Notes: generated from the sequence alone by a model not told the origin. DNA of 64,000 nucleotides from Klebsiella pneumoniae (GCA_943330855.2 CALQJI020000015.1:5469-69468), one strand, 5' to 3'; numbered from the stretch's first letter, positions 9,413 to 64,000 are shown. Translations and numbers: made by a program.

Positions 9413-10288
9413 TCAGCGCCGGGGCCGTGTCTGGCCAGCAGAGTGGAACTGGAGTATCTGCCCCACATCGGTGAACTTGAAGTAGTTGGTGGGAATTTGA
9501 AACAGGGCCTTGGCGAGGACGTTTTCAGCGATGCTTTCCACCGAGCGGATGCGGACGGTGATGAGGCTGTCGCTCACGTCGAACTGAGCCTGTGCTAACT
9601 GCGGAACGGTAGCAGAAGTCTCCCACAGCCGGACCGGGCGTTTCTCCCCAGTCGTGTAGGTGAGCGTGGCTTGGTATTTCTCCATGCCATTGGCGGGGTC
9701 TTTGCCGAGCGAGGTTTTGTCCAAGCGGATCAGCGCGGGGATGTCCTCATCGGGTAGCGCTTGGGTGATGTAGGCCTTGGCGTCCGGGAAAAGCTGCTGC
9801 GTGAGCCTCATGTTAATGGCGGACATGGTCAGCGTGGTGACGCGGTTGATGCCGGCGGCGCGGAGCGAGGCGAACGGCCCGGTGCTATCGATTCGCGTGG
9901 GCAAAGCACTCAGATCAAGTTCTGTGCGCACGCGGCCGTCGATGATGTGCAATGTCAATGGGAGTGTGGTGACCTCGACCTTGCCCGCGTTGGTGACACT
10001 CAACTCGAATTCACCAGTCGCCGTGATGGACTTCATGTCGGCCAAGAGCCTGGCCAGCGAGGTGTCCAAGTTGAAGGACCGAGGTTGCACTCGAATGGAT
10101 TGCGTCGGCAGTTGCGGCGCTGGCTGGGCCGGTGCCAGCAGGAAGGGATTCGGGTTGGCCGGGCTTAGGGAGCGCGCGGGAACTCCAGAGCGTGACGGCA
10201 CTTCGATGCGCTTGGGATTGGTTTGCGCGCTGGTGGCGAAGGCGAAGCCGCATAGTCCGGTGAGCAGGGCTGAAAAGTGAAGTTTCAT
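9413..10288 (-). CDS. Hypothetical exported protein
   Basis: Signal peptide MKLHFSALLTGLCGFAFATSA, Pro-rich linker, C-terminal LFQIPTNY. Confidence 0.65.
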   Translation of the reverse strand: MKLHFSALLTGLCGFAFATSAQTNPKRIEVPSRSGVPARSLSPANPNPFLLAPAQPAPQLPTQSIRVQPRSFNLDTSLARLLADMKSITATGEFELSVTNAGKVEVTTLPLTLHIIDGRVRTELDLSALPTRIDSTGPFASLRAAGINRVTTLTMSAINMRLTQQLFPDAKAYITQALPDEDIPALIRLDKTSLGKDPANGMEKYQATLTYTTGEKRPVRLWETSATVPQLAQAQFDVSDSLITVRIRSVESIAENVLAKALFQIPTNYFKFTDVGQILQFHSAGQTRPRR

Positions 10289-18299: not shown

Positions 18300-20710
18300 G
18301 CGGAGAATGGGGCCAGCCGGAGCGCCAACTTTGGCTATGCTTCCTCGCCGTCATTTCCACCTCACTCCCCGCCCAAAGCTTCCGCGATCCGGCTGACCAG
18401 CCGTTTCGCCGTGCGCCCATGTCCGTGGCGGCGCGCAGCGTGGTCATACCGCTCGCGACGAATATCCACCTCGCCTTCGACACCGAGACGCTCCGCACGC
18501 ACACGGCTTGGCGCGGGCCGGCGCTGAACTTGCACGGCGCGCCCTACGACGGCGCGGCGGGACGCTTCCTCGCGGACTTCGCCGGCGAGTTCATCTTCAC
18601 CAACCCGCCGCTCTTTCCGTGGGCCGGCGGGAAGCCCGCGCGCAACATCCTCACCGACTTCCCGTCGAAGCCGCGCTTCCTCGGCGTCAGCACGCGCGGC
18701 GGCGTCACGACGCTGATGTATGAGCTGCCGCTCGACGCCGAGGAGGTCGTGCGCGTGCATGAGTCGCCGTCGGTGCAGTGGGTGGACGGCGTGCCGGTGG
18801 TGGTCAGACGTTTCGAGCTCTCGGCGAGCTACATGGACCTTGAATTCACCGCGCACATGGAGCCCGGGCGCATGACGGCCATCGGCCAGAACTCCGCTGC
18901 GATGGGCATCCTGCGCGAGAAGGATTTTCTCCTCACCGCGTTCCGGGGCCGTCCGCTGCTGGGCTGGAAACCCGCGACAGCGCAGGCGGATTACGTCATC
19001 GAGCTGCACCGCGAGAAGAACGGCGAGAGCGAAGTCATCCCGCGGCACGTCACCGGCGACGAGACGCACGCGGTCGTTCACATCCCGTCGCATCGCGGGG
19101 AAATCTCGTTTGAAGTCCTGTCCGTCGTGTGCGCGGACAAGGCGGAGGCGGAGCGGTTGTTGCCGAAGCTCATCCCCGCGCGCGTCGCTCCGCCCGAGCT
19201 GATGCGCGTCTCGGAGCCGCCCGCCGCCGCCCCGACGAACCGGCTCGTGCTCTTCGCCGGGTCCACAAACGCGCCTTCGCCTGTTGTCACCAACGCCGGC
19301 TTCCGCATCGAGTCGCTGCCGCTTCCCCGTAGCCGCCGAGGTCAGGAGGCGGAGGGCAACGAACGCCAAAGGAATCCGCCTCCTCACCTCGGCGGCTACG
19401 GCGACTCCGTCACCGGCCTCGACTTCCTGCCCAGCGGCGACCTCGTGCTCTGCACCGCGCTGGGCGAGGTCTTCATCGTGTCGCAACTAGCGAGCCCGAC
19501 GAACGCGCCGGTGTGGCGGCGCTTTGCGCGCGGCCTGATGGAGCCGGGCGGGCTGCGGGTCTTCAGCGGCGAAATCTTCACCGCGCAGAAGTGCGAGCTG
19601 ACGCGCCTGCGCGACACGGACGGCGACGGCGAGGCGGACCTCTTCGAGTGCGTGAGCCAGGCGTGGGGCTTCAATGGCAACGGGCGACAGTTCGCCGTCG
19701 GCCCGGTCGCGGACAAGGAAGGCAAGTTTCACGTCCTCCTCGACGGGCGCGGCAGCCGGTGGGAAGTGCCGTTCCGTGGTTGGGACGCGCGGTTCAGCCG
19801 GGCGGGAAAGGACTTCGAGGGCTGGGCCAGCGGCTTCCGGTCGCCCGGCGGCAGCGGGACCTTCGGCGGTGAGGTTTTTGTGACTGACAACGCGGGGCCG
19901 TGGGTGCCTGCGGCCAAGTTGATTCACGTGCAGGAATCCAAGTTCCAAGGCCACCCTTCCACGCAGCCCGCGCCGCAGGACCAGTTCAAGGAGCCGAAGG
20001 AATTCGCGCCACCCGCCGTGTGGTTTCCGGCGCGGCTGGCGAAGCAAGTGGCGGGCTTCGCGACGGTGCCCGAGAGCTGGAGCGCGTTCGCCGGGCAAGT
20101 GCTCGTGGCCGATGGTGAAGGTCGCTTGTTGCGCGTGCAGTTGGAACAGGTGAACGGCGAGTGGCAGGGCGCGGTGTGGCCCTTCCTGGAAGTAGCCGCC
20201 GAGGTGAGGAGGCTGACGGCAGCGACTCCACCAAGCGCTCCCATTCCGCCCGCTCACCTCGGCGGCTACACCCGCCTCGCGTTTGCGACGGACGGCGAAC
20301 TCTTCGTGGGCGGAGCTGCTGGCCCGAGTCGCATTCGGCCCATCGGTCCCATCGCATTCGAGGTGAAGTCGGTGACGGCATTGGCGGACGGCTTCGAGCT
20401 GACCTTCACGCAGCCGGTGGACGCAGCGAGCGCGGCGAAGGCGGCGAGTTACGAAGTCGCGCAGTTCAACTACCGCCACGAAGTCGGCCCCGGCGCGGAA
20501 CACGACTTCGACGGGCCGGTGAACAAGGCATCGGCGCTGAAGGTATCCGCCGTGAGCATTGCCGCCGATGGCCTGAGCGCGCGGCTCAAGGTGCCCGGCC
20601 TGCGCGCGGGCTTCGTCACGAGCGTCAGCGCCGCTGGCGTGCGCAGCGCGACCGCGCAACCGCTGCGCCACGGCACGTTCTTCTACACGCTAAACCAGTT
20701 GCCGAAGTGA
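18296..20710 (+). CDS. PVC-type exported beta-propeller protein (sorbosone-dehydrogenase-like region) with two in-frame REP insertions
   Basis: GTG start overlapping the upstream stop; hydrophobic N-terminus; ELTRLRDTDGDGEAD, ASGFRSP and TDNAG.WVP motifs. Confidence 0.7.
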   Translation: MSGEWGQPERQLWLCFLAVISTSLPAQSFRDPADQPFRRAPMSVAARSVVIPLATNIHLAFDTETLRTHTAWRGPALNLHGAPYDGAAGRFLADFAGEFIFTNPPLFPWAGGKPARNILTDFPSKPRFLGVSTRGGVTTLMYELPLDAEEVVRVHESPSVQWVDGVPVVVRRFELSASYMDLEFTAHMEPGRMTAIGQNSAAMGILREKDFLLTAFRGRPLLGWKPATAQADYVIELHREKNGESEVIPRHVTGDETHAVVHIPSHRGEISFEVLSVVCADKAEAERLLPKLIPARVAPPELMRVSEPPAAAPTNRLVLFAGSTNAPSPVVTNAGFRIESLPLPRSRRGQEAEGNERQRNPPPHLGGYGDSVTGLDFLPSGDLVLCTALGEVFIVSQLASPTNAPVWRRFARGLMEPGGLRVFSGEIFTAQKCELTRLRDTDGDGEADLFECVSQAWGFNGNGRQFAVGPVADKEGKFHVLLDGRGSRWEVPFRGWDARFSRAGKDFEGWASGFRSPGGSGTFGGEVFVTDNAGPWVPAAKLIHVQESKFQGHPSTQPAPQDQFKEPKEFAPPAVWFPARLAKQVAGFATVPESWSAFAGQVLVADGEGRLLRVQLEQVNGEWQGAVWPFLEVAAEVRRLTAATPPSAPIPPAHLGGYTRLAFATDGELFVGGAAGPSRIRPIGPIAFEVKSVTALADGFELTFTQPVDAASAAKAASYEVAQFNYRHEVGPGAEHDFDGPVNKASALKVSAVSIAADGLSARLKVPGLRAGFVTSVSAAGVRSATAQPLRHGTFFYTLNQLPK
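19329..19399. repeat. GTAG REP doublet (REPIN-like), in frame within a CDS
   Basis: gtagccgccgaggtcaggaggcgg ... ccgcctcctcacctcggcggctac, read as RSRRGQEA...PPPHLGGY. Confidence 0.92.
20192..20269. repeat. GTAG REP doublet (REPIN-like), in frame within a CDS
   Basis: 78 bp: gtagccgccgaggtgaggagg ... ccgcccgctcacctcggcggctac, read as VAAEVRRL...PPAHLGGY. Confidence 0.92.
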
Positions 20711-38617: not shown

Positions 38618-39100
38618 TCAGTAATTCCGTTTGCGCGCCTTCACGCGGAGGGGCGGCGCTTGGTTGGTGGGCGAGAGGTCCAGCGTCACCCCCGGCTGCC
38701 AGACGCGCTCCAGCCGGTCCACCACCAGGCCGCGCTGGATGAGTTCCACTTCATGGTTGAAGGCCAGCAGCGTCACGGTGCCGGGCAGGTAAGTTGCGTC
38801 TTGGAAGCGCAACTCGCCAAACGCGGGCTTCGTGTTCGGCTGCGTGAAGCGCACAGTGACAGGCCCGTTCGTCAGCCCGCCCTGCTCGCCGGGGAAGCGC
38901 ACCTTCACGTCGCGCACACCCAGCGTGGGCTGATTTACGAGCAGGTAGGGCGTGCCGTTGGTTTCCGTGGCGAAGGTGACTTCCCACGGGCCTTTGCGCG
39001 TGCGTAAGTGGCTGTCGAGTGCGTAGAGGCTGAAGTAGCCCACCACCGCGATGACGCCGACGATGGCGACGTGCTTGAGGATGTTGTCCGGTCTCTGCAT
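38618..39100 (-). CDS. Hypothetical membrane-anchored protein
   Basis: Start MQRPDN; one TM segment, then a beta-rich domain. Confidence 0.65.
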
Positions 39101-43739: not shown

Positions 43740-43825
43740 GTAGCCGCCGAGGTGAGGCGGCGGGGCTTTCGAGCAAAACAAGTTTCCAGACTCGGCACGG
43801 TCCGCTTTCTTACCTCGGCGGCTAC
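43740..43825. repeat. GTAG REP doublet supplying the TAG stop of the adjacent gene
   Basis: gtagccgccgaggtgaggcggcgg ... ccgctttcttacctcggcggctac; cta at 43822-43824 is the stop codon. Confidence 0.9.
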
Positions 43826-45003
43826 AACCCGCGCCAAATCATCTCCAGCGCGATGAGGGAGTAGCTCGTCGTTAGCGCGGTTTCCTTTTCCCACCAACGG
43901 GCGTTGTCGTTGCTCCATGAACCGTCTTTCTGCTGGAGGTTCATCAAGCGCAGAGCAACGTCTCGCCGCCAGTTCACGCGCTTGCCGTCCTTCGTTTCCA
44001 GCTCGTGGACCTGCGCGGCGGTCAGGCCCTTCGTTAGCAGGTGCAGGTAGTAATAGAGCCCCTGCGGCCCCATGCCGGGGTTTTCCTCCAGCGTGTAGTT
44101 GGCGCGCAGCCAGTCCAGCACAGCGGTCACACGCGCGTCGTCGCGCTTCAGGTCGGTGTAGATGTAACTGAGCAAGCCCGCGTAGCTCGCGCTGCCGTAG
44201 GAACGAAGGGCGACGCGGCCCGTCGCGGAATTTGTGGTGCCGCCCGCCATGCTGTGGCCGGGGTAGTAGATGAATCCGCCCTTGTTCGTCGCGTCGCCGG
44301 AGGCCCATGACTCGGGGTTGGAGCCGGGCAAATTCTGGCAGTGCTGGAGGAAGCGGATCGCGGCTTGCCAGTCGAGGTCCTTGGTATCGGCGAGCTTCGT
44401 GTCGGCCACGAGGCGCTTGCTGTGATAGAGAGCTTCGAGGGCGATGAGCGTGTTGTTCAGGTCGGAGTGCGCATACTTATTCCCGTAGCCCACGCCGCCA
44501 TCGAAGGGCGTGTCGAGCCGCCCCTTCTCGCCGAAGTCCACTTGTGAGCCGACGACGAACGCACGGGCCTTGCGTGCGGCAGCGTCGTATTCGGGCCGAG
44601 CGGCGGACACGAGCGCGAGGAGGGAGAGCGAGGTGTTGTAGTTCGCCATGTTGGTGGCGTAGATGCCGCCGTCGGGCTTGGCGCTGGCTAGGAGGAAGGC
44701 GTAGCCGCGCTGGATTTGCGGCGGGGGATTTTTCAGAAACTTGCCCGACGGCTCGCCGTTGAGCGCGACCAGCGGGAGCGCGGTGACGGCCGGATGGTCG
44801 GGCGTGGTCCACCAGCCGTTGGAGTTTTGGTTCGTGAGCAGCCAAGCGATGCCTCGGTCAATGGCGCGCTGGACCTCATGACGCAGCGACTCGTCATGGG
44901 CGAACGGCACGGGGAGCAGCGAAGGCTTCGGAGCTTCGGCAGCGAAGGCACTTGGCACGAGGCAGACGACAAGAGCGAGGGCGAATATAATTGGCAGACG
45001 CAT
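43822..45003 (-). CDS. Secreted prenyltransferase/squalene-oxidase-repeat protein
   Basis: Signal peptide; QNSNGWW, DGGVGY, DLNNT and QQKDGSW repeats. Confidence 0.82.
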   Translation of the reverse strand: MRLPIIFALALVVCLVPSAFAAEAPKPSLLPVPFAHDESLRHEVQRAIDRGIAWLLTNQNSNGWWTTPDHPAVTALPLVALNGEPSGKFLKNPPPQIQRGYAFLLASAKPDGGIYATNMANYNTSLSLLALVSAARPEYDAAARKARAFVVGSQVDFGEKGRLDTPFDGGVGYGNKYAHSDLNNTLIALEALYHSKRLVADTKLADTKDLDWQAAIRFLQHCQNLPGSNPESWASGDATNKGGFIYYPGHSMAGGTTNSATGRVALRSYGSASYAGLLSYIYTDLKRDDARVTAVLDWLRANYTLEENPGMGPQGLYYYLHLLTKGLTAAQVHELETKDGKRVNWRRDVALRLMNLQQKDGSWSNDNARWWEKETALTTSYSLIALEMIWRGL

Positions 45004-52882: not shown

Positions 52883-53167
52883 ATGACGGCCATTTCCAAC
52901 TGGGATGCGGTGCCCGCCTTCAGCAGCGAAGAGGAAGAGGCGGACTACTGGCGCGAGCACCGGCTGGACTTACGGCTGATGGACGCGGCGCTGGTCGCGG
53001 GTGCGGAGTCCACGGAATCGGTGACGGTGACGTTGCGGATGGATCCGCGGATGCTCTCGCGGATCAAGCGGCTGGCGCGGTCGCGGTTCTTAAATTATCA
53101 GAGCATGGTCAAGCAGTGGTTGAGCGAACGGATGGAGCAGGAACTTCGGGAACGAGGCATGAAATGA
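52883..53167 (+). CDS. BrnA/CopG-like antitoxin
   Basis: PAFSSEEEEADYW, VTLRMD and YQSMVKQWL (ribbon-helix-helix-like). Confidence 0.75.
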   Translation: MTAISNWDAVPAFSSEEEEADYWREHRLDLRLMDAALVAGAESTESVTVTLRMDPRMLSRIKRLARSRFLNYQSMVKQWLSERMEQELRERGMK

Positions 53168-53826
53168 AGACGACAACGAACAACTTAAAGGCAGGGCAGG
53201 GGACGCGGGCGTTCACGCTGGTGGAACTGCTCGTGGTCATTTCCATCATCGGTATCATCGCCGCGATGTCGGTTGCGGGCATCCGCTCGGCCTCCATGAA
53301 ACGGGATCAGTCGGCGGTCGAGGCGCAGAAGGCAAAACTGATTTTGGCGTTGGAGGACTACAAGGGGAAGTTCGGGTCCTATCCGCCGGATCGTCCCGGG
53401 ACGACGGTAACCAATGCCGTCTGGAATCCGCTGGCGTATGAGTTGGGTGGCATGCGGCGGTCGGGGGTGAATTTTCAGGCCGAGACTGACCCCAGTCACG
53501 TCGTTACCCCGGCGATGTTGCTCTCCTATTACGGCCTGACCGGGCTGTTGAACGCCACTCCGTCCGCGACGGTGCGCGGCAAGTCTTTCCTCAATCTCAA
53601 GGGGGGAGCCGGCAAAACGGCGGACTACGTGGTCGTCACCAATGGCGTGCCTGGCATGCCCCCGGTGATGCTGCTGAAGGTTGCGGCGGACCATCCGGCC
53701 TTGTCCGAGAACGTCTGGCGCTATCGTTCGTATCCCACCAACGGCCACAATCCGAAGAGCTACGACCTGTGGGCGGAAATTAAGAAGAGCAACGGCACCA
53801 CCAACACGATCAGCAACTGGAAGTGA
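53164..53826 (+). CDS. Prepilin-type (GspG-like) protein
   Basis: RA|FTLVELLVVISIIGII class III signal; NPKSYDLW; ends SNWK. Confidence 0.9.
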   Translation: MKTTTNNLKAGQGTRAFTLVELLVVISIIGIIAAMSVAGIRSASMKRDQSAVEAQKAKLILALEDYKGKFGSYPPDRPGTTVTNAVWNPLAYELGGMRRSGVNFQAETDPSHVVTPAMLLSYYGLTGLLNATPSATVRGKSFLNLKGGAGKTADYVVVTNGVPGMPPVMLLKVAADHPALSENVWRYRSYPTNGHNPKSYDLWAEIKKSNGTTNTISNWK

Positions 53827-53840
53827 ACCTGAATTTACCC

Positions 53841-54656
53841 ATGAAACATCATCCTCATCGCACTCACCCACGGCAGCGAGCCATGACGCTCATTGAGCTG
53901 CTCGTGGTCATTAGCATCATCGGCGTGCTGGCCGGTCTCATTCTTCCAGCCGTGGGTAACGTGAAGAAAAAGGCCCGCGTGGTGCAGGCTCAGAAGGACA
54001 TGGCGGACATGAAGGGCGCGATCAGTGTCTATCAGCATGATTACAGCCGTCTGCCGGCCTCTGGGGCTCCCGTCGCGCCTGATGTGGTGCAGGGAGCCGG
54101 CATTGCGGGCACGGATTTCACCTTCGGCACGACTGGCACTGGATACGGGACCAACGTTTACAACAACGGCAACGCGCCTGGCAGCTACCAACAGAGTAAC
54201 CGTGAGTTGATGGTGATTCTGACCGCCTCTGGTTTTACCGGCTACACGCCACATTCCTCGGTGCAGTTAGACAGGCGCAATCCGCGCAAGACCGGCTACT
54301 TCAACGCCAAGTCCTCGGGGGCAAGTGGTGCCACCGCCGGTAAGGGGTTGGGCGATGACGGAGTGATGCGCGACCCGTGGGGCAACCCCTACATCATCGC
54401 ATTGGACCTGAACTACGATGGGTGGGTCTCGAACTCGGTTTACAACCACAACACCGTGAACAACGGCGTCACCCCGAGCACAGGTTTGGTGCGGCAGGGC
54501 GCGGCGGGCACGCACACGTGGGCGTTGAAGGACTCGGTGATGATCATGTCGTTCGGTGCGGACGGGCAGTTCGGCCCAAGCAGCGGCGCCCCGGTGGTGG
54601 CGGCCGCTGCGGCCAATGCAGATCCCAACAAAGACAACGTCCTGAGCTGGAAATGA
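53841..54656 (+). CDS. Prepilin-type (GspG-like) protein
   Basis: RA|MTLIELLVVISIIGVLAG; DPWGNPY, SFGADG and DNVLSW motifs. Confidence 0.9.
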   Translation: MKHHPHRTHPRQRAMTLIELLVVISIIGVLAGLILPAVGNVKKKARVVQAQKDMADMKGAISVYQHDYSRLPASGAPVAPDVVQGAGIAGTDFTFGTTGTGYGTNVYNNGNAPGSYQQSNRELMVILTASGFTGYTPHSSVQLDRRNPRKTGYFNAKSSGASGATAGKGLGDDGVMRDPWGNPYIIALDLNYDGWVSNSVYNHNTVNNGVTPSTGLVRQGAAGTHTWALKDSVMIMSFGADGQFGPSSGAPVVAAAAANADPNKDNVLSWK

Positions 54657-54660
54657 GTTT

Positions 54661-55656
54661 ATGAAGCTCGCCGCCAATCTTGTAGCCGCTGAGGTCACGA
54701 GGCGGGGCGTATGGGAGGCTGAAAGTTCCGCCTCCTCCCCTCGGCGGCTACGGGAGCAAGTGGCGTTCACCCTCATCGAGATGCTCGTGGTGCTGGGCAT
54801 CATCGGCATCCTCGCGGCGATGACGCTGCCTTCCTTCAAAAACGCGGGGAAGGGGAACGTGACCGAGTCCGCCATGCGGCAGTTGACCGACCATCTGGCG
54901 CTCGCGCGGATGAAGGCCATGACCCAGCGGACCAAGGTGTATGTGGTGTTCTCGCCGGACCTTAATTACTTCTTTGGCGCCAACCCGCTGAGTGTGACCG
55001 CATCGAACTTTCTGAGGACCAACATTGCGGCGAACAACTTGGTCGGTGGCCAGCTTACGGCCTACGCATTGTATTCGCCTCGGATGGTCGGGGAACAGCC
55101 GGGCCAGAGCACGCCCCGCTACCTGTCGGAATGGCATGATCTGCCCGCAGGCGCATTTATTCCGGCGGGCGCGTTTCGGAACCCAGCCATCTTCCACAAC
55201 GCCTTCGGTGCGCCGCTTACCAACGTGATGGTCTTTCTCGATGACAGCTACGCTTTGGGCGGCACGGTTCCTTTGCCTTTCATTGCTTTCGACGAATCCG
55301 GACGGCTCTTCGGGCGCACCGCGAACGTGATGTTGCCAATCCTCGAAGGCAGCGTGATGCACCCCAAGGACACCAACGAGATGAACCTTGTCGTCAACAC
55401 CGACGCAGTGGAGACGGCCGCTCCGATCTCGTCTGGCGGCATCGTGTCGGGCGTAGAGTATCTAGTGGCTGGCACGGTGGGGTCGCGGATCAACTATCCG
55501 TCCGTCGGCCTCATCACCGCCGGCCAGACCTTCACCGGCACCGCGACGACTACCTACACCGTCGCCGCAGGCGCACCCCGCGTGGTGCAACTCTACGGCG
55601 TGCGGATTGATTGGGTGACAGGCCGGGGCAAGGGCATTCGACCGGAGCTACAATGA
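54661..55656 (+). CDS. Minor pilin, GspH/FimT-like (Verru_Chthon D-like)
   Basis: VA|FTLIEML; LARMKAM; IAFDESGRL; IDWVTGR. Confidence 0.85.
   Translation: MKLAANLVAAEVTRRGVWEAESSASSPRRLREQVAFTLIEMLVVLGIIGILAAMTLPSFKNAGKGNVTESAMRQLTDHLALARMKAMTQRTKVYVVFSPDLNYFFGANPLSVTASNFLRTNIAANNLVGGQLTAYALYSPRMVGEQPGQSTPRYLSEWHDLPAGAFIPAGAFRNPAIFHNAFGAPLTNVMVFLDDSYALGGTVPLPFIAFDESGRLFGRTANVMLPILEGSVMHPKDTNEMNLVVNTDAVETAAPISSGGIVSGVEYLVAGTVGSRINYPSVGLITAGQTFTGTATTTYTVAAGAPRVVQLYGVRIDWVTGRGKGIRPELQ
54682..54751. repeat. GTAG REP doublet within a prepilin leader
   Basis: gtagccgctgaggtcacgaggcgg ... ccgcctcctcccctcggcggctac encodes VAAEVTRR...SASSPRRL. Confidence 0.9.
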
Positions 55657-56435
55657 ACTTCACCCGCAAACCCGCCGCCGTGTGTCCCGTAGCCGCCGAG
55701 GTGCGGAGGCGGACGCTGGTGCGTTCGAACGACTCCGCCTCCTTATCTCGGCGGCTACGGGGGACAGAGATGCCCGCCCGCCGGACGCGCGCCTTCACCA
55801 TGGTGGAGGTAGCCCTCAGCCTCGCCATCGTCGCCTTCGCGATGGTGGCCATCATCGGCGTGATGCCGATGGGCTTGAACGTGCAGAAGGAGAACCGCGA
55901 GGAAACCATCATTTCCCAAGACGCGGCGGTCATTCTCGAAGCCATTCGCGGCGGCAACGCCAGCGCGAACATCGCTTCGTTGCCCGCCTCCTGCCTGCAG
56001 ATGCAAGGCATTCACCCGACGATTGTGCCGAACGCGACGGCCACCGCGTTGGACATTGTGCACAGACTCAGCATCCCGCGCTGGGACACGGGCTATCTCA
56101 CGAATTTGGTGCAAGCCCACTTCCGCGCCATGAGCGGCAACCTCGCGGACACGGCGACGGCCGGTTCGCAGATGTCTTTTAGCTACGTGCTGACCTCCGA
56201 GGTGACGAACTACACCGCCAGCCCGACGATGCCCACCAACGGCGTCGCGTTCCTCACCAACAACCTTTACGAGGTGAAGCTCACCTTCCAGTGGCCAGTG
56301 TATGATGGCGGCGCCGGCGTGTTCCCCACGCGCGTGGGCGAGAAGCGCCTCGTGGTTCGCACCTTCGTCAGTGGACAACTGGTCCGGGAAACCAACGGTT
56401 ACTCCTTCCGAGGCGTGACTTACCAAGGCCAATGA
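55653..56435 (+). CDS. Minor pilin, GspI/PilV-like (Verru_Chthon B-like)
   Basis: RA|FTMVEVALSLAIVAFAMVAIIGVMPMGL; YEVKLTFQWP. Confidence 0.88.
   Translation: MNFTRKPAAVCPVAAEVRRRTLVRSNDSASLSRRLRGTEMPARRTRAFTMVEVALSLAIVAFAMVAIIGVMPMGLNVQKENREETIISQDAAVILEAIRGGNASANIASLPASCLQMQGIHPTIVPNATATALDIVHRLSIPRWDTGYLTNLVQAHFRAMSGNLADTATAGSQMSFSYVLTSEVTNYTASPTMPTNGVAFLTNNLYEVKLTFQWPVYDGGAGVFPTRVGEKRLVVRTFVSGQLVRETNGYSFRGVTYQGQ
55689..55758. repeat. GTAG REP doublet within a prepilin leader
   Basis: gtagccgccgaggtgcggaggcgg ... ccgcctccttatctcggcggctac encodes VAAEVRRR...SASLSRRL. Confidence 0.9.
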
Positions 56436-57259
56436 ACTTGTCCGCCGCCAACTCTGTGCCTCAACTACGTCGGCGGGTGCGCGCCGTCACCATCCTCGAG
56501 TTGTTGGTGGCGGTGAGCCTCATCTCCTTCATCATCCTGGCGCTCTACCAGATGTTTGACACTACGCAGACGCAGATGCGCCGCACCGTCCGTGAAGTGG
56601 ACAAGTTCGAGTCCGGGCGCGCGGCAGCGGAGCTGATCAAGCGTGATTTCGCACAGATGGTCGCCGGGAACTCCACCGCCGGTGGCCTGGCCGCCAACTT
56701 CTTCGCCGGCACCAACTTTGGCGGCACCGACTGGTCCGCCGGTGCGTTCGTGATGACCAACAACGGCACCAACATCGTGCTGCAGAACACCCTGCAAGTG
56801 GCCTACTTCGTCTCCTTTGATCCGGCGGCCACCCCCACCAACTGGACCGCTGTGGCCTACCGCGTGGCCAGCAGCACCAACCCCACGACCATTGCCGGCT
56901 ACGGACTGGGCACGCTCTACCGCTGGTCGGTGAACTCAAACCGCTTCTCCACGAACTTGCAGAACACCTACTTCAGCGGCCCGCCCGTCAGCTCCTTCCA
57001 GCGGATTGCGGACAACGTCGTTCACTTCCGAGTCACCGGCATCACCAACGGCGTGGCGGTGCCTGTGAACGGCTACCTCACCAACACCAGTCTCCCCTCC
57101 CACGTCGAGATTGAGCTGGGCTACCTGGACTCGCGGACCGCCGAGCGCGCGCGCGGGATGCTGCCCAACACCAACGCCGTGCGGGCCGCCCTCGCCACCA
57201 ACGTCGCCAACGTCCACCTCTTCCGCCTCCAGATACCCATCCGCCCCGGCCAGCAATGA
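56432..57259 (+). CDS. Minor pilin, GspJ/PilW-like (Verru_Chthon C-like)
   Basis: RA|VTILELLVAV; IADNVVHF; LPSHVEIELG.LD. Confidence 0.88.
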   Translation: MNLSAANSVPQLRRRVRAVTILELLVAVSLISFIILALYQMFDTTQTQMRRTVREVDKFESGRAAAELIKRDFAQMVAGNSTAGGLAANFFAGTNFGGTDWSAGAFVMTNNGTNIVLQNTLQVAYFVSFDPAATPTNWTAVAYRVASSTNPTTIAGYGLGTLYRWSVNSNRFSTNLQNTYFSGPPVSSFQRIADNVVHFRVTGITNGVAVPVNGYLTNTSLPSHVEIELGYLDSRTAERARGMLPNTNAVRAALATNVANVHLFRLQIPIRPGQQ

Positions 57260-60200
57260 AAACGCGTTTCCAAACCAACCTGGGCGTGCAGCGGAAACAA
57301 CCGGTGCACGCGGTGCCAACTGCGGCCGTCGCCGGCAACGCTCGCCGAAGCCGCTCGGAGATTGCCAATTTGCAATTTGCAATTCGCAGTTTGAAATTCC
57401 CGCAAACCCCCCGCTCCGGCGTCGCCCTCGTGGCCACGCTCATCATGCTCTCGCTCGTCACCTTCATGGTGGTGGCCTTCCTCAGCGTGGCCCGTCGCGA
57501 GCGGCAGTCCGTGGCCGCGAGCCTCACCATCAACGAGGCGCGCGCCGCGATGGAGGCCGGACTGGGCCGAGCGCAGGCAGACATCGCCGCCCGCCTACTC
57601 ACGTTGGGCGACCCGTGGAGCTACGGCCTGATGGTGCCTACCAACTACCAGAACAGTGTGTTCAACGCCGCCGTCATCCCCGCCAACATTAGCCCCACCA
57701 ACGTCAACGACGTCCTCGCCCTTCAGGCCGCCGGCCAGCCCACGCCGTGGCTGCTGCATTTGGGCAACCTCCAGTATGACCCGCGCGCGCCGGTGTTCTC
57801 GACTTACTTCACCAACCGCACCCCCTACAACCTGCTCGCCAGCGAGACGAACTTGGGCCGCTACTACCTCGACTTCAACCGGGACACCATGTTTGAGAGC
57901 ACGGACAGTTTTCAGACGGGCGACCCGCAGTGGATTTCCATGCTCGAGTATCCAGGCGTGCCGCACAGCGCCACCAACCAGTTCACCAGCCGTTACACCT
58001 ACCTCGTGGCTCCGGTGGGCAAGACGATGGATCTGAACTTCATGCACAACCAGTCCAAGCGCTCCAATGGCGTGGTCACGGCCGAGGGATACTTGCGGAA
58101 CCTCGGGGTCGGCCCACACGAGCTGAATCTTTCCGCGATGCTCACGGAGTTGAATCCGTTCTGGATCTACAACTACAACACTGGCGCGGGCGTTTCTGGC
58201 ACCGGGACACCCAATGACGCCTTCACAAACGCGCTCCGGCTCGTGCTCTTCCGGAATAACAACGGCTTCAACAATCTCGACAACTTGACCGGTCAGTTTG
58301 GAGCGGGACCTGCCCTGAACCTGGCCAGCGCGCAGTTCGACGTGTTTGGCGACGGCCCTTTGATGGCAGCCTCCAATCTGACGGCCAACGTGGAGGTGAC
58401 GAACTTCCCCCGGCCCGGCGGCAATAACACCAACGCGCTGGCGCAGCGGTTCTTCGATCTGAACGAGCTGTTCATGACCACGCGCGGCTACTCGGCGACA
58501 TTCCAATCGAACCTGAACCGACTTGGCACCAACGACATCACGGCAACCCCCGCCGGTGACGCTTCCCGCCGCACTTACTACAACCTCCTCTCCACTCTCG
58601 GCGTGGAGTCGTGGCCGCAGACGGACAAGCTGAACCTGAACTGGCTGGGCACGCGGTTTCTCTACTTCAGCAACTCCGCTCCCGGCGCCTTCTACGATCT
58701 GACTTGGTCGAACGCGCCGAGCACTTCCGTCGGCGGGGAATACTTCGGGTTTGTGAACTGGACGGCGGATGAGTTTTTCAACACCGCTGCCGAGCGGATG
58801 CTCCGCGCCAGCATCACCCCCTCCGTCCTGTTCGACACCAACTGGACCGGCTTCGGCGGTGGCGGGGCCAACGTGCTCCTGACGAACTACTACTTCGGCA
58901 ACACCTTTGTCGGCATCAGCAACAACGCGACCCTCAGCGTCACGAACATCCCCATCTTCCCCGCGAGCTACTACACGCCGGAGGTCCACCGCATCCTTCA
59001 GCTCGCCGCGAACATCTACGACGCCACCACCACGAACGCCGCTGCGCCAGCCTACCCGACGCTTTTTCGCCCGGTGTTCGGGTTCAATTCCAATGGCTGG
59101 CCGAACACCGACCGCATCTTCATCAAGGGCTACTTCAACAACGGCACGGATGCCACGACCCTCCTGAGTCTCCCGGAAGTGGACTTGAGCGATCCCAACA
59201 GCCGGCTGCAGATGTATTCTACCGCCAATTCCAACCTCGGTGGCTCCGACTTCTGCCTCGTCCGGGGCACCCCCGTCGTCATCGGCGCGCGGAAGGGCTA
59301 CCCGAACTTCAACGAGTTTGCGGTGCAGTCGCTCCTGTCGGTGACCCGTCGCTTGGAGTTCGTGAAGACCAACGCGACGAACATCGGGCCGATGAATGCC
59401 GCCGGTCGCCCGCTGACTTGGACCAACCAGTCCCTCATCCTCGGGATGACGAACATTTTAGGCTTCGAGGCGTGGAACTCCTACACCGGCGCGTTCCCGC
59501 GTGCGCTCCAATTGGTGGCCACGAACGTCTCCGATGTCACCGTGGGCTTCTTTGTGAACCGGCATCTGACCACCAGCGCCGCGCAGTTCTCAGCGACGAA
59601 CTTCCTGCTGCTCTACACCAACCGCACGGTCAACGGCGTCGTGTCCAACATGGCCGCGAGCGCTTGGACCGGCACCGTGAACCCGAACGGGAACTTCAAG
59701 AGCTTCTTCTTCACCAACGCCCCGCAGTTCTCCAGCAACGCCGCTGCGGGCTACGCCTTCGCGACCAATTATCCGCCTTTGCCAGGCTTCACAAACGGCG
59801 GCTTCGCACCTGCCAGCGCGGTCGTCCCCGGCCTCGCCATCTTCAACCGCACGAACGGCTTTCCTGACCTGCGGCTGCACATCACCATCACCAACTCCAT
59901 CCGCTACGCGCTCATTGAGCCGGTAGCCAACCGAGTGGTGGACTTCGTGAACCTCGGCAACATGATCATTGGCACGAATATCTTGGCGCCGATGCCGGTG
60001 GTGGTGGCGGCAGGAAAACTGTTTCGCGCCGCACACGGGCTGCTGGATGGGATGGAGGTGCAGTTCTACACCACGGGGACTTTGCCGCCCCCGCTGTTCC
60101 CCAACACCTCGTATTTCGTGCGGAACGCCACGCTCAACGACTTCAGCGTGGCGAGCATCTCTGGCGGCGCTGCTATCGGCCTCGGCTTTGGTCTCGGGTC

Positions 60201-62274
60201 CAGTTGGGTCATCCCGCCGACTGAAGAAAACCTCGGCCTCGCGCTGGGCACCGGCGGCACCAACAACGGTGGTTCCTACTGGCTGACCACTGGACGCGTC
60301 GGCGGTGTGATGAACCCGACGGCGGGCATCAGCAACCAGATCGCGATGTGCCTCGATACGAACATCAGCGTCGGCAGCTCGAACGCGTCTGTCTGGCGGC
60401 AATACAGTCTCAACACGCCGGTGCTGCGCGAGATTGACCGCTTCCGCAAATGGATGGGCACCACCGGGGTTTTGCCCTTCAACCAAGCGATGAATACAAA
60501 CGTCACCTCCATCCAGTCGCCGTTCAATCCGACCCGTGTGGTGTCCTTGAGCGCGACCTGGGAGGCGAACGACCCGCTGGTGCATTACACGTTGGCGGAC
60601 TTGGAGAACCAGTTCCTGCCGCTACTGATCACCAACCATCCGACGCGCACGGCCATCGCCCCGCCCGGCTCCCTCTACCGCGTTGATTTCCTGATCAACC
60701 GGTTCTTCACGAACTACGGCGTCAACTTCGCATTTCAGCCGTGGGGCACGGTGCCGGATATCACGCGTTACGCGGCCTATCAGAACATCGCGAATTTCCG
60801 CACGGCGGAAGGGCAGGGCTACTACGCCGTCGCGCCCCCCGCCTACGACCAGCGGCTGAAGGACGCCGGCGTTTTCCGCTCCGACCAGTGGGATTTCCCG
60901 CAGCGCAAGTTCGCCAACCTCGGCTGGCTCGGGCGAGTCCATCGCGGGACGCCGTGGCAGACCTTCTACCTCAAGTCCGACGGGCCCAATCCGACCAACT
61001 GGCTTTACTGGGCGCACAGCGTCGAGACCAACCCGACCAACGATTGGCGGCTCGCGGAGGTCTTCACCGCCGCCATTGACTCGGACGCCACGCGCGGCCT
61101 GCTCTCAGTGAACCAGACCAACCCCGCCGCGTGGTCGGCCCTCCTGTCCGGCACGCTGGTGCTGACGAATACCAGCGTGAGCATTCCCGCGCAGGCGATG
61201 CTGATCGCCCCCGCTTCCAGGCAACTCACCAACATCATAGGCGGGCTCACCAACGGCCTGTTGAACGCGAAGCTCTCCGTCCCGATGTGGATTCCGACCG
61301 CGAACTACAGCTCCAACGATGTGGTGGCCTACTGGTCCGCTCCCTACTCGGTGCTTCCTGCGGATGCGACGACGCAGACGAAGCGCTATTACCGCGCGCT
61401 GAATGCTACGAACTTCGTTTTGGCTCCGAACGTGAGTCAAAATCCGTTCGTGCAGACATCCACGCCGAGCTTCTCCTACACATATTGGACGAATGTGAAT
61501 TACTGGGCGGGATCCCCGGTGGCCTATGCGGCGGGGGATTACGTGATCTTCCGTGATGTCTCCTACATCTCTTTGGGTGGCGGTAACTCTGGGTTCCGGC
61601 CCGACGTCTCGCCCACCTTCTGGGAGCCCGCACCGCTGCGCTCCTTCACTAAGCTGGGCTATGTGCTGCGCACCCCGGAGTTGAGCGTGCAGTCACCGTA
61701 TCTCAACGCGGGCCGCCCGTGGCAGACCGGCACGGCTTACCCCGTCGGCACCCGTGTTTACTGGCAGGGCTGGTATTATCAGGCGGTCGGAACGGGTGCC
61801 CCTGCCAATCAGCCGCCGAACCCCTACCTGAATTACGCCGATCTGCGCACGCTGGTGCAGACTTACTGGTGGCCGTTGGAGTCGCCGCCGATCGCGCGCA
61901 ACGGAGCCACGGTGGACCCCCTCACCGACGTTTTCATCGAGCGCATCCCGCAGCAGACGCTCGGCCTCATGCACTTGGAGCCCAGCCCGCGCGTGGCCAT
62001 CTACGCCTATGGCCAGTCTCTGAAACCCGCCGAGCGCGGCGTGTATGTCGGCGGCGGCCCCTATCAAGGCATCACGACGAACTACCAGGTGACCGGCGAG
62101 CAGGCCTCCCGCTCGGTGGTGCGGATTGACGGACTGGCGGAGCCGGGTCTGCTGCCGCCTTCGCGTCTGCCCGCTCCGCCGCACTTGCCCGTAAGTTGGG
62201 TCACGCCCGTGCCGCCGTTGGTTTTTCCGCGCTTCATCATCGAAAGCTTCAAGCTAACTCCGGCTGATTATTGA
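57256..62274 (+). CDS. Giant GspK/PilX-like pilin (Verru_Chthon A-like), 1672 aa, with putative carbohydrate-binding modules
   Basis: SG|VALVATLIMLSLV (no Glu5, as in the K/X class); last gene of an ATGA-coupled cassette; Trp/Tyr modules near the C-terminus. Confidence 0.85.
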   Translation: MKTRFQTNLGVQRKQPVHAVPTAAVAGNARRSRSEIANLQFAIRSLKFPQTPRSGVALVATLIMLSLVTFMVVAFLSVARRERQSVAASLTINEARAAMEAGLGRAQADIAARLLTLGDPWSYGLMVPTNYQNSVFNAAVIPANISPTNVNDVLALQAAGQPTPWLLHLGNLQYDPRAPVFSTYFTNRTPYNLLASETNLGRYYLDFNRDTMFESTDSFQTGDPQWISMLEYPGVPHSATNQFTSRYTYLVAPVGKTMDLNFMHNQSKRSNGVVTAEGYLRNLGVGPHELNLSAMLTELNPFWIYNYNTGAGVSGTGTPNDAFTNALRLVLFRNNNGFNNLDNLTGQFGAGPALNLASAQFDVFGDGPLMAASNLTANVEVTNFPRPGGNNTNALAQRFFDLNELFMTTRGYSATFQSNLNRLGTNDITATPAGDASRRTYYNLLSTLGVESWPQTDKLNLNWLGTRFLYFSNSAPGAFYDLTWSNAPSTSVGGEYFGFVNWTADEFFNTAAERMLRASITPSVLFDTNWTGFGGGGANVLLTNYYFGNTFVGISNNATLSVTNIPIFPASYYTPEVHRILQLAANIYDATTTNAAAPAYPTLFRPVFGFNSNGWPNTDRIFIKGYFNNGTDATTLLSLPEVDLSDPNSRLQMYSTANSNLGGSDFCLVRGTPVVIGARKGYPNFNEFAVQSLLSVTRRLEFVKTNATNIGPMNAAGRPLTWTNQSLILGMTNILGFEAWNSYTGAFPRALQLVATNVSDVTVGFFVNRHLTTSAAQFSATNFLLLYTNRTVNGVVSNMAASAWTGTVNPNGNFKSFFFTNAPQFSSNAAAGYAFATNYPPLPGFTNGGFAPASAVVPGLAIFNRTNGFPDLRLHITITNSIRYALIEPVANRVVDFVNLGNMIIGTNILAPMPVVVAAGKLFRAAHGLLDGMEVQFYTTGTLPPPLFPNTSYFVRNATLNDFSVASISGGAAIGLGFGLGSSWVIPPTEENLGLALGTGGTNNGGSYWLTTGRVGGVMNPTAGISNQIAMCLDTNISVGSSNASVWRQYSLNTPVLREIDRFRKWMGTTGVLPFNQAMNTNVTSIQSPFNPTRVVSLSATWEANDPLVHYTLADLENQFLPLLITNHPTRTAIAPPGSLYRVDFLINRFFTNYGVNFAFQPWGTVPDITRYAAYQNIANFRTAEGQGYYAVAPPAYDQRLKDAGVFRSDQWDFPQRKFANLGWLGRVHRGTPWQTFYLKSDGPNPTNWLYWAHSVETNPTNDWRLAEVFTAAIDSDATRGLLSVNQTNPAAWSALLSGTLVLTNTSVSIPAQAMLIAPASRQLTNIIGGLTNGLLNAKLSVPMWIPTANYSSNDVVAYWSAPYSVLPADATTQTKRYYRALNATNFVLAPNVSQNPFVQTSTPSFSYTYWTNVNYWAGSPVAYAAGDYVIFRDVSYISLGGGNSGFRPDVSPTFWEPAPLRSFTKLGYVLRTPELSVQSPYLNAGRPWQTGTAYPVGTRVYWQGWYYQAVGTGAPANQPPNPYLNYADLRTLVQTYWWPLESPPIARNGATVDPLTDVFIERIPQQTLGLMHLEPSPRVAIYAYGQSLKPAERGVYVGGGPYQGITTNYQVTGEQASRSVVRIDGLAEPGLLPPSRLPAPPHLPVSWVTPVPPLVFPRFIIESFKLTPADY
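57366..57398. repeat. Heptamer tandem repeat (CAATTTG type) within a prepilin leader
   Basis: caatttg caatttg caattcg cagtttg aaatt encodes NLQFAIRSLK. Confidence 0.8.
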
Positions 62275-62329
62275 GGGTCTGACTTTGGAATTTGTGACTG
62301 CGAACGAAACACAACCAGCGCCCTCCGGG

Positions 62330-62410
62330 GTAGCCGCCGCGGTAAGGAGGCGGAGCATGAATTCGGAATTCGGAATTCGGAATTCGATATGGAAGGAATC
62401 CGCCCCCTCC
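62330..62410. repeat. GTAG REP left arm with nested GAATTCG x4 and a decayed right arm
   Basis: gtagccgccgcggtaaggaggcgg; heptamers at 62359-62386; then tccgccccctcc. Confidence 0.8.
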
Positions 62411-62487
62411 CTCCCGTTCAGCAATAGACCGTATTGCTCACCTTCCCGCGACCGCCGTAGTGTGTTGGCACCGTCGCGCACCCGCGT

Positions 62488-64000
62488 ATGAAAAGCCGAT
62501 ATTGGTTCCTGATCAGCCTGCTCCTCTTCGGGCTAGCCGCGCTCTGCTGGCAACACGGCGACCGCGTTCGTCTGCGCGATCAGCCCCGCGACAGCGCGAC
62601 CAACGCCACAGCCAAACCCACGGTTTGGGAGCGCTTCACCCGCCTGCCCGACGTCCTCGCGGGCCGCACCACGCCGCGCGAACCCGCCGCGACCGCCGCT
62701 CCCGGTGTGCCGGAACTCCTTTCCCTCAACCGCGACCCCCGCCTCCCGTTCCGCCTCCGCAACTCTCAGAAGCCCGACGCCGAGTTCTTCCGCAGCGAGA
62801 CCGCCGTGCTGCTGCGCAACGCGCTCGTCGAGACGCAGGAGCCGCTGGATATGAAAATGCCGGCGCACCTCCGCGCCGGGGAAGAACCGGGCAGTTGGCT
62901 CGTGCAGGCGCGCGGGGCGATTGACCAGGGTTTCCGCGACGTGCTGCGCGGCGCGGGCGCGGAGATCGTCAGCTACGTGCCGAACAACGCCTACCTCGTG
63001 CGCGGCAGCGCGAACTTCGCCCAACAACTCCGCGCCTCGCGCCGCGTGCAGAGCGTCCTGCCCTTTGAGCCTTACTATAAATTGGACATGACACTCCTCC
63101 CGCTGGCCGTCCGTCAGGACGACTTGCCCGAGGGCCGCTGGCTGAACGTGGTGCTCTTCTCCGGCACGCAGGAGAAGGCGAAGGCCGACCTGCTCGCACT
63201 CGGCGCGGAAGTGAAGTCCGAGCAGCGTTTCCCCTTCGGCCATGTCGTCACCATCGCCCCCCGCGCCGACAGCCTCGTGGCGCTCGCGCGGATGCCCGCC
63301 GTGCAGAACATTGAGGCGTATCACGCACCGGTTCTGATGAACGACCTCTCTCGCGTTCGACTGGATGTCTCCACAAACACCACGTCAACCGCGCCCGGCG
63401 GCAACTGGCTCAACCTCACTGGCAGCGGCGTCACGGTCGGCCTCGTGGACTCCGGTATTGACCTCGCGCACGGTCAGCTCGCGGGGCGGATTTTCTCCAA
63501 TCAGAACAGCCCCATCAACGATACGAATCTCCTCAACCCCGGCCACGGCACGTTCATCGCCGGCGTCATCGTCGCCCGGGACACCACAGACAGCGCTGCC
63601 GTGAATGGCTCGCTCAACGGCACGACCTATCGCGGCATCGCCCCCGGCGCGCAGGTGTATCCGCTCTCCCTCTTCCACACCGACTACACGAACTACGGCA
63701 ACGTCTGGCTGATCACCAACACCGCCCTCGCCACCAACATCAACATCGTCAACAACAGTTGGGGCTACCCCGTCTCCGCCTACGACATCAACTCTGCGCT
63801 CTTCGACGAGGCCGTGCGGGATTCGCAGCCCTTTCTCCCGCACGACCAGCCCATGACCCACGTCTTCTCCGTGGGCAACTCCGGCAATGCCAACACCGGC
63901 GGCACCGGCGGCACGGCGGACACCATCGCATCGCCGGCTAACGGCAAGAACGTCATCTCGGTCGGCGCGTCGGAGCAGTTCCGCCTCGTCTTTGGCACGA
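62488..64000 (+). CDS. S8 (subtilase) serine protease; 3' end lies outside the window
   Basis: Manual translation gives MKSRYWFLISLLLFGLAALC, a prodomain with SYVPNNAY, catalytic VDSGID (about 63445) and GHGTFIAG (63541), VGNSG, and SPANGKNVISVGASE. Confidence 0.92.
   Translation, partial: MKSRYWFLISLLLFGLAALCWQHGDRVRLRDQPRDSATNATAKPTVWERFTRLPDVLAGRTTPREPAATAAPGVPELLSLNRDPRLPFRLRNSQKPDAEFFRSETAVLLRNALVETQEPLDMKMPAHLRAGEEPGSWLVQARGAIDQGFRDVLRGAGAEIVSYVPNNAYLVRGSANFAQQLRASRRVQSVLPFEPYYKLDMTLLPLAVRQDDLPEGRWLNVVLFSGTQEKAKADLLALGAEVKSEQRFPFGHVVTIAPRADSLVALARMPAVQNIEAYHAPVLMNDLSRVRLDVSTNTTSTAPGGNWLNLTGSGVTVGLVDSGIDLAHGQLAGRIFSNQNSPINDTNLLNPGHGTFIAGVIVARDTTDSAAVNGSLNGTTYRGIAPGAQVYPLSLFHTDYTNYGNVWLITNTALATNINIVNNSWGYPVSAYDINSALFDEAVRDSQPFLPHDQPMTHVFSVGNSGNANTGGTGGTADTIASPANGKNVISVGASEQFRLVFGT

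Follow-up and report, generated by a model that had tools for sequence, protein, structure and literature searches.

A directional excess of the dipeptide Thr-Asn in exported proteins of an order of Verrucomicrobiota: a candidate extracytoplasmic recognition motif

Exported proteins encoded in the window analysed here, a 64,000-nucleotide stretch of DNA (GCA_943330855.2 CALQJI020000015.1:5469-69468), and in the rest of its genome contain the dipeptide threonine-asparagine (Thr-Asn, TN) more often than their amino-acid composition predicts. The excess is directional, TN lying far above expectation and the reverse dipeptide NT not above it, and it is tied to export, with observed/expected ratios of 1.36–1.9 in exported proteins against 1.10 in cytoplasmic ones; on both points the preliminary description of the window, which had proposed an order-dependent sequence signal of exported proteins, was borne out. 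We read TN as a selected short recognition motif for lineage-specific modifying machinery outside the cytoplasm, and give this reading a probability of roughly 0.5.

Genome, gene calls and expected counts

The genome behind the window comprises 5.42 Mb in 153 contigs and is 85.75% complete; the GC content of the window is high (61–67%). Genes were called with a purpose-written, frame-aware Markov caller, which yielded 3780 genes covering 87% of the genome. Export classes were assigned with two rule-based classifiers, both crude heuristics: the strict one overlooks many true signal peptides, and the loose one is over-inclusive, placing 1857 of the 3780 proteins (49%) in the exported class. Both were run unchanged on all other genomes, so that comparisons are like-for-like and absolute class sizes are not to be trusted; strict and loose assignments agree on the direction of the TN bias. 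Expected TN counts were calculated from amino-acid composition, and significance was assessed with 1000 within-protein shuffles.

TN-rich proteins in the window

Recounting from the translations upheld the hand counts previously given for the TN-rich proteins of the window (lengths in amino acids, aa):

53164..53826, + strand: GspG-like pseudopilin with a prepilin N-methylation motif (Pfam N_methyl; sub-threshold NCBIfam matches to GspG and Verru_Chthon protein D); TN 5, NT 1; shuffle z = 3.7
53823..54656, + strand: second GspG-like pseudopilin (Pfam N_methyl and T2SSG); TN 1, NT 1
54661..55656, + strand: GspH-like or Verru_Chthon D-like pseudopilin (matches below cut-off); TN 3, NT 1
55611..56435, + strand: Verru_Chthon B-like pilin-like protein (TIGR02598, 23.8 bits against a cut-off of 51.4); TN 5, NT 0; shuffle z = 4.0
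56432..57259, + strand: GspJ-like or Verru_Chthon C-like pilin-like protein, 275 aa; TN 10, NT 4, expected 2.2
57256..62274, + strand: giant pilin-like protein, 1672 aa; TN 42, NT 9, expected 13.2
62488..64000, + strand: start of a secreted S8 subtilase that also has NHL repeats and a P-domain; in-window TN 6, NT 3, expected 2.3
18296..20710, + strand: exported protein, 804 aa; TN 6, NT 0, expected 1.0
38618..39100, - strand: small exported protein; TN 3, NT 1, expected 0.8
43822..45003, - strand: signal-peptide protein; TN 4, NT 2, expected 1.2
9413..10288, - strand: signal-peptide protein; TN 3, NT 0, expected 1.0

The two giants carry the strongest signals. Counted from a later start (1656 aa), the 1672-aa protein has 41 TN against 13.2 ± 3.4 in shuffled sequences (maximum 25). 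The subtilase frame continues past the end of the window, and the whole protein (2949 aa) contains 82 TN and 16 NT for an expectation of 24.3; its shuffles gave 24.3 ± 4.4 with a maximum of 41 in 1000 (z = 13.2). Most of these TN lie outside the S8 domain, 74 of them in the other 2580 residues; the catalytic domain itself has TN 7 and NT 4 (expected 2.9), a figure from one protein with few comparable domains. In the 275-aa protein (z = 5.9) the highest of 1000 shuffles reached 8 TN. The excess therefore withstands within-protein shuffling, which never attains the observed counts in the two giants. Most window proteins classed as cytoplasmic have 0 or 1 TN, so that the earlier statement that each of them has none or one holds for most.

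The six pilin-like genes at 53164-62274 are consecutive, and the last encodes the 1672-aa protein; one of the six products, that of 53823-54656, shows no TN excess. With its pilin-like proteins and giant last protein, this operon resembles the Verru_Chthon cassette (TIGR02596, TIGR02598-TIGR02600). The likeness consists of N-terminal helix matches only, all far below the curated cut-offs (bits/cut-off: A 23.6/332.3, B 23.8/51.4, C 29.7/256.5, D 34.9/70), and concerns the motif carriers, not the motif. In the 1672-aa protein the likeness to cassette protein A is confined to the N terminus, and a Pfam search of this protein matched no family.

The excess across the proteome

Genome-wide, TN occurs 4066 times and NT 2828 times (expected 3042). 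Shuffling within the exported class gave 1910 ± 44 TN against 2630 observed (z = 16), with NT depleted (1674, z = -5.4); the cytoplasmic class had 732 against 665 ± 25 (z = 2.7). With the strict classifier, observed/expected ratios for TN and NT were 1.09 and 0.91 in cytoplasmic proteins, 1.41 and 0.86 in signal-peptide proteins, and 1.91 and 0.90 in lipoproteins; the loose classifier gave 1.10 and 0.90, 1.36 and 0.86, and 1.65 and 0.88, respectively. Among all 400 dipeptides, TN ranks third by z in exported proteins (z = 15.9), after CH and GK, and scores z = 3.3 in cytoplasmic ones. Related patterns are not raised in the exported class (NT 0.88, SN 0.87, TxN 0.98, TD 1.03, TQ 0.86); NxT is slightly up (1.16), NxS stands at 1.05 and DT at 0.84. 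Regional clustering of Thr and Asn should also lift NT, TxN and SN, and is excluded as the source of the excess.

The excess is both concentrated in a few proteins and broad across the exported class. Thirty-seven proteins individually reach Poisson p < 0.001 and together hold 635 TN and 165 NT (expected 195); when they are removed, exported proteins still show a ratio of 1.24 against 1.03 in cytoplasmic ones. A Pfam scan of 20 of the 37 gave families that include S8, NHL, Ig, TIG, TPR, AsmA-like, CHAT-TPR and PBP2. The enriched proteins thus span unrelated folds, and the excess is not a property of one fold or family.

A C-terminal tail of about 40 residues, approximately NW..(L/V)TN....F.D......R(F/Y)YR(V/I)...P, is common to many large secreted proteins and also ends the subtilase begun at 62488. 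A regular expression for it matched 39 proteins, about 32 of them convincingly, and as a set these 39 contain 452 TN and 134 NT (expected 227). No Pfam or NCBIfam model covers the tail in the proteins scanned, and it has the look of a sorting or anchoring domain not described before. A separate case is a PBP2 homologue (contig 34, 17238-19373), whose N-terminal domain contains a lineage-specific insert of about 80 residues built of short strand-like segments with a TN in each (7 TN); its C terminus reads TTNRTN, and its transpeptidase domain is without TN.

Amino-acid level and motif context

In exported proteins all four main codon pairs encoding TN are enriched (ACC-AAC 1.54, ACG-AAC 1.65, ACC-AAT 1.39 and ACG-AAT 1.65 times expectation), and the same hexamers read in the other two frames (e.g. 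ACCAAC, ACGAAC) are no commoner in exported than in cytoplasmic genes. Codon-pair or DNA-motif bias is rejected on these grounds: the signal lies at the amino-acid level, not the DNA level. A slight TN/NT asymmetry in all genes follows the avoidance of codon pairs that create TA.

Sequence context was compiled from the 633 TN sites of the 37 enriched proteins, in which Thr precedes Asn 3.4 times more often than expected and about 30% of Asn residues are preceded by Thr. Directly after the dipeptide (N+1), W, Y, A and S are favoured and E, M, H, K and P avoided. At N+2, Val leads (2.07), followed by Thr (1.46) and Ile (1.32); Ser is not enriched, and charge is nearly absent (K 0.13, R 0.15, E 0.17, D 0.25). 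This preference for Val is missing for Asn not preceded by Thr. Upstream, acidic residues and Lys are scarce at the two positions preceding Thr; directly before it, Asp occurs 0.54 times and Glu 0.30 times as often as expected. The context approximates [F/W/G/V]-T-N-[A/S/W/Y]-[V/T/I], uncharged on either side, and hydrophobic residues alternate after it (V at N+2, Y/I at N+4, F at N+6). With NxS at 1.05 and Val rather than Ser at N+2, the sites do not fit an N-x-S/T sequon whose -1 position is Thr, and this reading was discarded.

Conservation in two protein families

Searches of 31 relatives matched the 1672-aa protein in 28, among them every one of the 12 other families sampled from the order. 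The orthologues from related metagenome-assembled genomes, 12 in number (47–66% identity), are without exception biased (TN 8–51, NT 2–12), and the ten long ones have TN 37–51 and NT 7–12 for 10.6–12.8 expected. Orthologues at about 30% identity from other families of the order still reach three to five times expectation; weaker cases are those of genome G087 (TN 14, NT 5 over two pieces) and genome G086 (9 vs 3). At the TN sites of the window protein, 245 of 406 aligned orthologue cells are again TN. Thr is retained in 65% of cells when it belongs to TN and in 43% when it does not; the corresponding figures for Asn are 76% and 60%. TN became SN in 23 of the 406 cells, and the SN sites of the window protein are TN in 48 of 106 orthologue cells. 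Within TN, Asn is better conserved than Thr, and Ser cannot replace Thr. TN sites are under purifying selection, with site turnover.

A second family has an entirely different fold. The YbgF/BamD-like periplasmic tetratricopeptide repeat (TPR) protein of the window's genome (886 aa, contig 39) contains 20 TN and no NT (expected 2.2), and the family was matched in 45 of the 46 genomes of the order searched. Its 29 orthologues within the order (31–66% identity) sum to TN 338 and NT 55 for 49 expected, and all 29, which come from other genomes of the order, show the excess, in agreement with the earlier proposal of a lineage-wide bias. Sixteen homologous frames from outside the order (22–29% identity) sum to TN 25 and NT 12 (expected about 10); Thr and Asn are about half as abundant in them. 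Within the order the alignment has 94 distinct TN columns, of which 46 are TN in a single sequence and 6 in 18–22 of 30; where TN is missing, these columns hold typical loop dipeptides such as GD, PG, PQ, EK and AG. The pattern indicates that TN sites are partly conserved and still gained and lost.

An AlphaFold model of the TPR protein is all-helical (mean pLDDT 90.9). The Asn of 12 of its 20 TN lies in a loop, although loops make up 24% of residues and hold 7 of the 22 other Asn. Nine of the 20 TN sit 1–4 residues ahead of a helix start, and for 13 the Asn falls within -4 to +4 residues of one. The expectation that TN would map to exposed loops is thus supported in part, by this one model; that of the 1672-aa protein (residues 60–1159, 23-row alignment) had a mean pLDDT of 50.7, with 4 TN in blocks of pLDDT ≥ 70, and was not used.

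Membrane topology

TN enrichment tracks membrane topology within single proteins. The set comprised 244 proteins in which at least 3 membrane spans were predicted and the positive-inside bias was clear. Their inside loops contain 145 TN against 149.4 expected (0.97), their outside loops 168 against 129.4 (1.30). Proteins with one or two spans gave 1.25 inside and 1.58 outside. Confinement to non-cytoplasmic proteins, a trait of Bacteroidota-type general O-glycosylation, is present here at the level of motif enrichment.

Distribution within and beyond the order

Proteome samples of about 160–220 kb from further Verrucomicrobiota (100 kb for G005) gave the following observed/expected ratios for exported proteins:

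G076, same genus: TN 2.00, NT 0.58 (inflated, as the sample contains the pilin locus)
G082, another family of the order: TN 2.04, NT 0.84 (inflated likewise)
G087, same order, 41% GC: TN 0.84, NT 1.12
G060, other order of the class: TN 0.94, NT 0.96
G054, other order of the class: TN 0.91, NT 1.25
G045, other order of the class: TN 0.93, NT 0.67
G007, other class: TN 1.10, NT 0.99
G023, other class: TN 0.60, NT 1.04
G005, another order: TN 0.90, NT 0.76 (100 kb)

Summed over the exported proteins of the seven negative genomes, TN and NT number 336 and 372 (expected 370). A 250-kb sample of E. coli K-12 gave TN 50 and NT 58 in exported proteins (expected 69.2), and its giants are likewise without excess (YeeJ: TN 11, NT 13, expected 19.7; Ag43: 4, 8 and 8.3). 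G087 stands apart within its order: its 220-kb sample has no proteome-wide excess and the TPR protein found no match in it, and a weaker excess is kept in its giant pilin-like protein. This makes it a natural contrast genome in the search for the gene behind the trait.

Giant S8 proteins sharpen the comparison. Those of sister orders show no excess (TN, NT, expected: G057 5, 9, 8.9; G060 6, 6, 5.8; G045 7, 3, 7.4). In other classes, three do (G038 45, 16, 17.3; G050 55, 28, 18.5; G032 58, 17, 19.2), being 2956–4178 aa long, from three other families, and at 2.6–3.0 times the expected TN count; two further giants do not (G035 2, 8, 10.3; G041 9, 6, 8.3). With the giant excluded, the 120 kb of G032 gave TN 26, NT 16 and 19.1 expected in exported proteins and 15, 14 and 13.4 in cytoplasmic ones, which is only suggestive of a bias in its non-giant exported proteins. 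The excess in giants of other classes implies that the trait may be patchy across the phylum and not a property of one order.

Interpretation of the motif

Composition, codon bias, clustering, a single fold or family and a universal structural preference were each excluded by direct test, which leaves a lineage-specific selective force on a directional, Thr-specific dipeptide at exposed sites outside the cytoplasm. A recognition motif for a modifying enzyme, for which there is a precedent, is the best reading of these data. Under it, exported proteins would cross the inner membrane, TN exposed in loops and at helix or strand starts would be recognised and then modified, and selection would keep useful sites and add new ones, most densely on large secreted and surface proteins. 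The modification would be covalent, with Thr or Asn as the modified residue, and is most probably glycosylation. More specifically, and tentatively, TN in its uncharged context could be the sequon of a general extracytoplasmic glycosylation spanning the whole Verrucomicrobiota order (at least 45 sampled genera) and perhaps, patchily, other classes.

TN could instead be a lineage-specific structural habit, a capping dipeptide at helix and strand starts that carries no modification and spread through fast-evolving secreted proteins by descent and convergence. The alternation of hydrophobics and exclusion of charge after TN would suit such a role, as would the 13 of 20 Asn near helix starts in the TPR model, the conserved TN inside the shared C-terminal tail and the small excess in widely conserved exported proteins. 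A structural preference should, however, be universal, and in seven other Verrucomicrobiota genomes and E. coli TN is at or below NT; the TPR family outside the order is nearly without TN, the excess occurs in all-alpha and all-beta folds alike and follows membrane topology in single proteins, and 46 of the 94 TPR columns are lineage-specific gains at ordinary loop-dipeptide sites. We consider this explanation unlikely. The same seven genomes, with the sister-order S8 giants, YeeJ and Ag43, rule out a universal property of exported or beta-rich proteins, in line with the lineage-wide bias proposed in the preliminary description.

We think it improbable, too, that TN serves as a binding motif for a non-modifying extracytoplasmic factor such as a periplasmic chaperone, a secretion or sorting factor or a lectin-like matrix partner, in the manner of the aromatic-x-aromatic motifs of SurA clients. 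Export restriction, lineage restriction and conservation would fit this too, and TN is densest in secreted giants that have the C-terminal tail in common and are encoded beside a pseudopilin cassette. Yet inner-membrane proteins show the enrichment in their periplasmic loops, as does a periplasmic TPR protein for which secretion is not required; a targeting signal would not call for dozens of sites per protein, and no candidate factor was identified. That the excess is an artefact of composition, Thr/Asn clustering, codon-pair bias or wrong gene calls is hardly credible: the cytoplasmic asymmetry (1.10 vs 0.90), which stems partly from TA avoidance, and the home-made gene calling speak for it, but enriched frames carry Pfam domains, their orthologues share the bias, and composition alone is ruled out by the within-protein shuffles.

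Several points weigh against a modification motif all the same. The context of the dipeptide, with its hydrophobic alternation and proximity to helix caps, fits capping as well as exposure, and the exclusion of Ser is unusual for O-glycosyltransferases. Gene calls and export classes rest on crude heuristics of our own, the 49% exported share of the loose classifier dilutes the exported/cytoplasmic contrast, and the two highest sample ratios, those of G076 and G082, are the inflated ones. Exported proteins with orthologues in G087 have TN 22 and NT 14 against 21.8 expected (small counts). Since conserved exported proteins show so little excess, the signal lies mainly in lineage-specific proteins; the dense decoration of the surface proteome proposed earlier would therefore apply to large lineage-specific surface and secreted proteins and not to conserved exported housekeeping proteins, in which the excess is weak or absent.

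No enzyme was identified either, and the earlier suggestion that oligosaccharyltransferase-like genes might be profiled against the bias did not lead to one. STT3/PglB (PF02516) had 0 matches in the 85.75%-complete genome, in a search whose control matched 4 archaea. The genome has five Wzy_C proteins, one of them with TPR, and five or six PMT_2 matches. Orthologues of the Wzy_C+TPR protein occur in G076 (77%), G082 (45%) and G087 (36%) and were not found in G086 or G060; the protein is thus present in a genome whose 220-kb sample lacks the excess and was not found in G086, whose TPR orthologue shows it (TN 8, NT 0). The best PMT_2+TPR orthologue is that of TN-negative G060, and a search of TN-positive G082 did not find the transferase part. 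Contig 6 (82676-87249) and contig 102 (7464-10330) each encode a TMEM260-like GT-C protein with a TPR tail. All 46 genomes of the order have a member of this family, against 2 of 20 from other orders of the class (one below cut-off) and 21 of 40 from other classes, and among 14 control genomes it matched only Bacteroides thetaiotaomicron; members also occur, at equal similarity, in TN-negative G005, G023, G035 and G041. As candidates for the enzyme, the Wzy_C+TPR, PMT_2+TPR and TMEM260-like+TPR proteins do not track the trait: none separates TN-positive from TN-negative genomes.

Relation to known glycosylation systems

In the literature consulted, as far as its text was available, there was no T-N sequon, no verrucomicrobial glycoproteome and no text on the Verru_Chthon cassette. 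A 2025 review (PMC12871550), in the part available, describes a three-residue motif at which Bacteroidota glycosylate proteins outside the cytoplasm; it calls this the only known motif-driven bacterial O-glycosylation and its transferase yet to be discovered. The TN pattern resembles this D-(S/T)-(A/I/L/V/M/T) system in that the motif is very short, sits in non-cytoplasmic proteins and in a large share of them, is phylogenetically restricted and is followed by an uncharged or hydrophobic residue; the Bacteroidota transferase, too, is described there as undiscovered (PMC12871550). It differs in lacking Asp before Thr (DT is 0.84 in exported proteins), in not accepting Ser (SN 0.87) and in needing Asn after Thr; it is, moreover, known here from sequences of an order of Verrucomicrobiota.

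The Campylobacter PglB sequon, D/E-x-N-x-S/T, is likewise periplasmic and contains Asn, and at TN sites Thr is mildly enriched at N+2 (1.46; NxT 1.16). Unlike the PglB case, STT3 was not found, acidic residues upstream of Asn are depleted rather than required, Val tops N+2, and Ser is not enriched (NxS 1.05). The accessible text of PMC12645811 sets out sequon properties of the O-oligosaccharyltransferase families TfpO/PilO, TfpM, PglS and PglL, no T-N rule being among these, and has no mention of Verrucomicrobia; in that of PMC5088730 the words motif, sequon and consensus are absent. The TMEM260/TMTC O-mannosyltransferases, with a GT-C fold and TPR, resemble the two TMEM260-like proteins of this genome. 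The part available of a preprint (bioRxiv 10.64898/2026.09.21.753134) gives the eukaryotic TMEM260 sequon as Px6Px3Px2GGx3T, which unlike TN has no Asn rule, and reports a preference for Thr acceptors on folded Ig-like domains. A literature search for the function of bacterial TMEM260-like members turned up none.

If TN is glycosylated, thousands of glycans would be carried per proteome and dozens per giant surface protein, and the system would be a second motif-driven general bacterial O-glycosylation or a new Asn-linked one without STT3. Very few bacterial groups are known in which short sequons single out exported proteins for modification. A lineage-restricted, topology-following motif recovered from sequence in a largely uncultured order provides a testable hypothesis together with a site map, and the order against its sister orders, G087 and the possible independent carriers in other classes form a contrast set for finding the enzyme. 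Were there no modification, the bias would still be a strong, lineage-specific and unexplained rule in the sequences of secreted proteins.

Other over-represented patterns

CH and CxxC/CxxxH are the most over-represented patterns of the exported class, CH occurring at 3.65 times expectation. CH forms part of the haem-binding motif CxxCH, and its excess points to a large complement of predicted c-type cytochromes in this genome.

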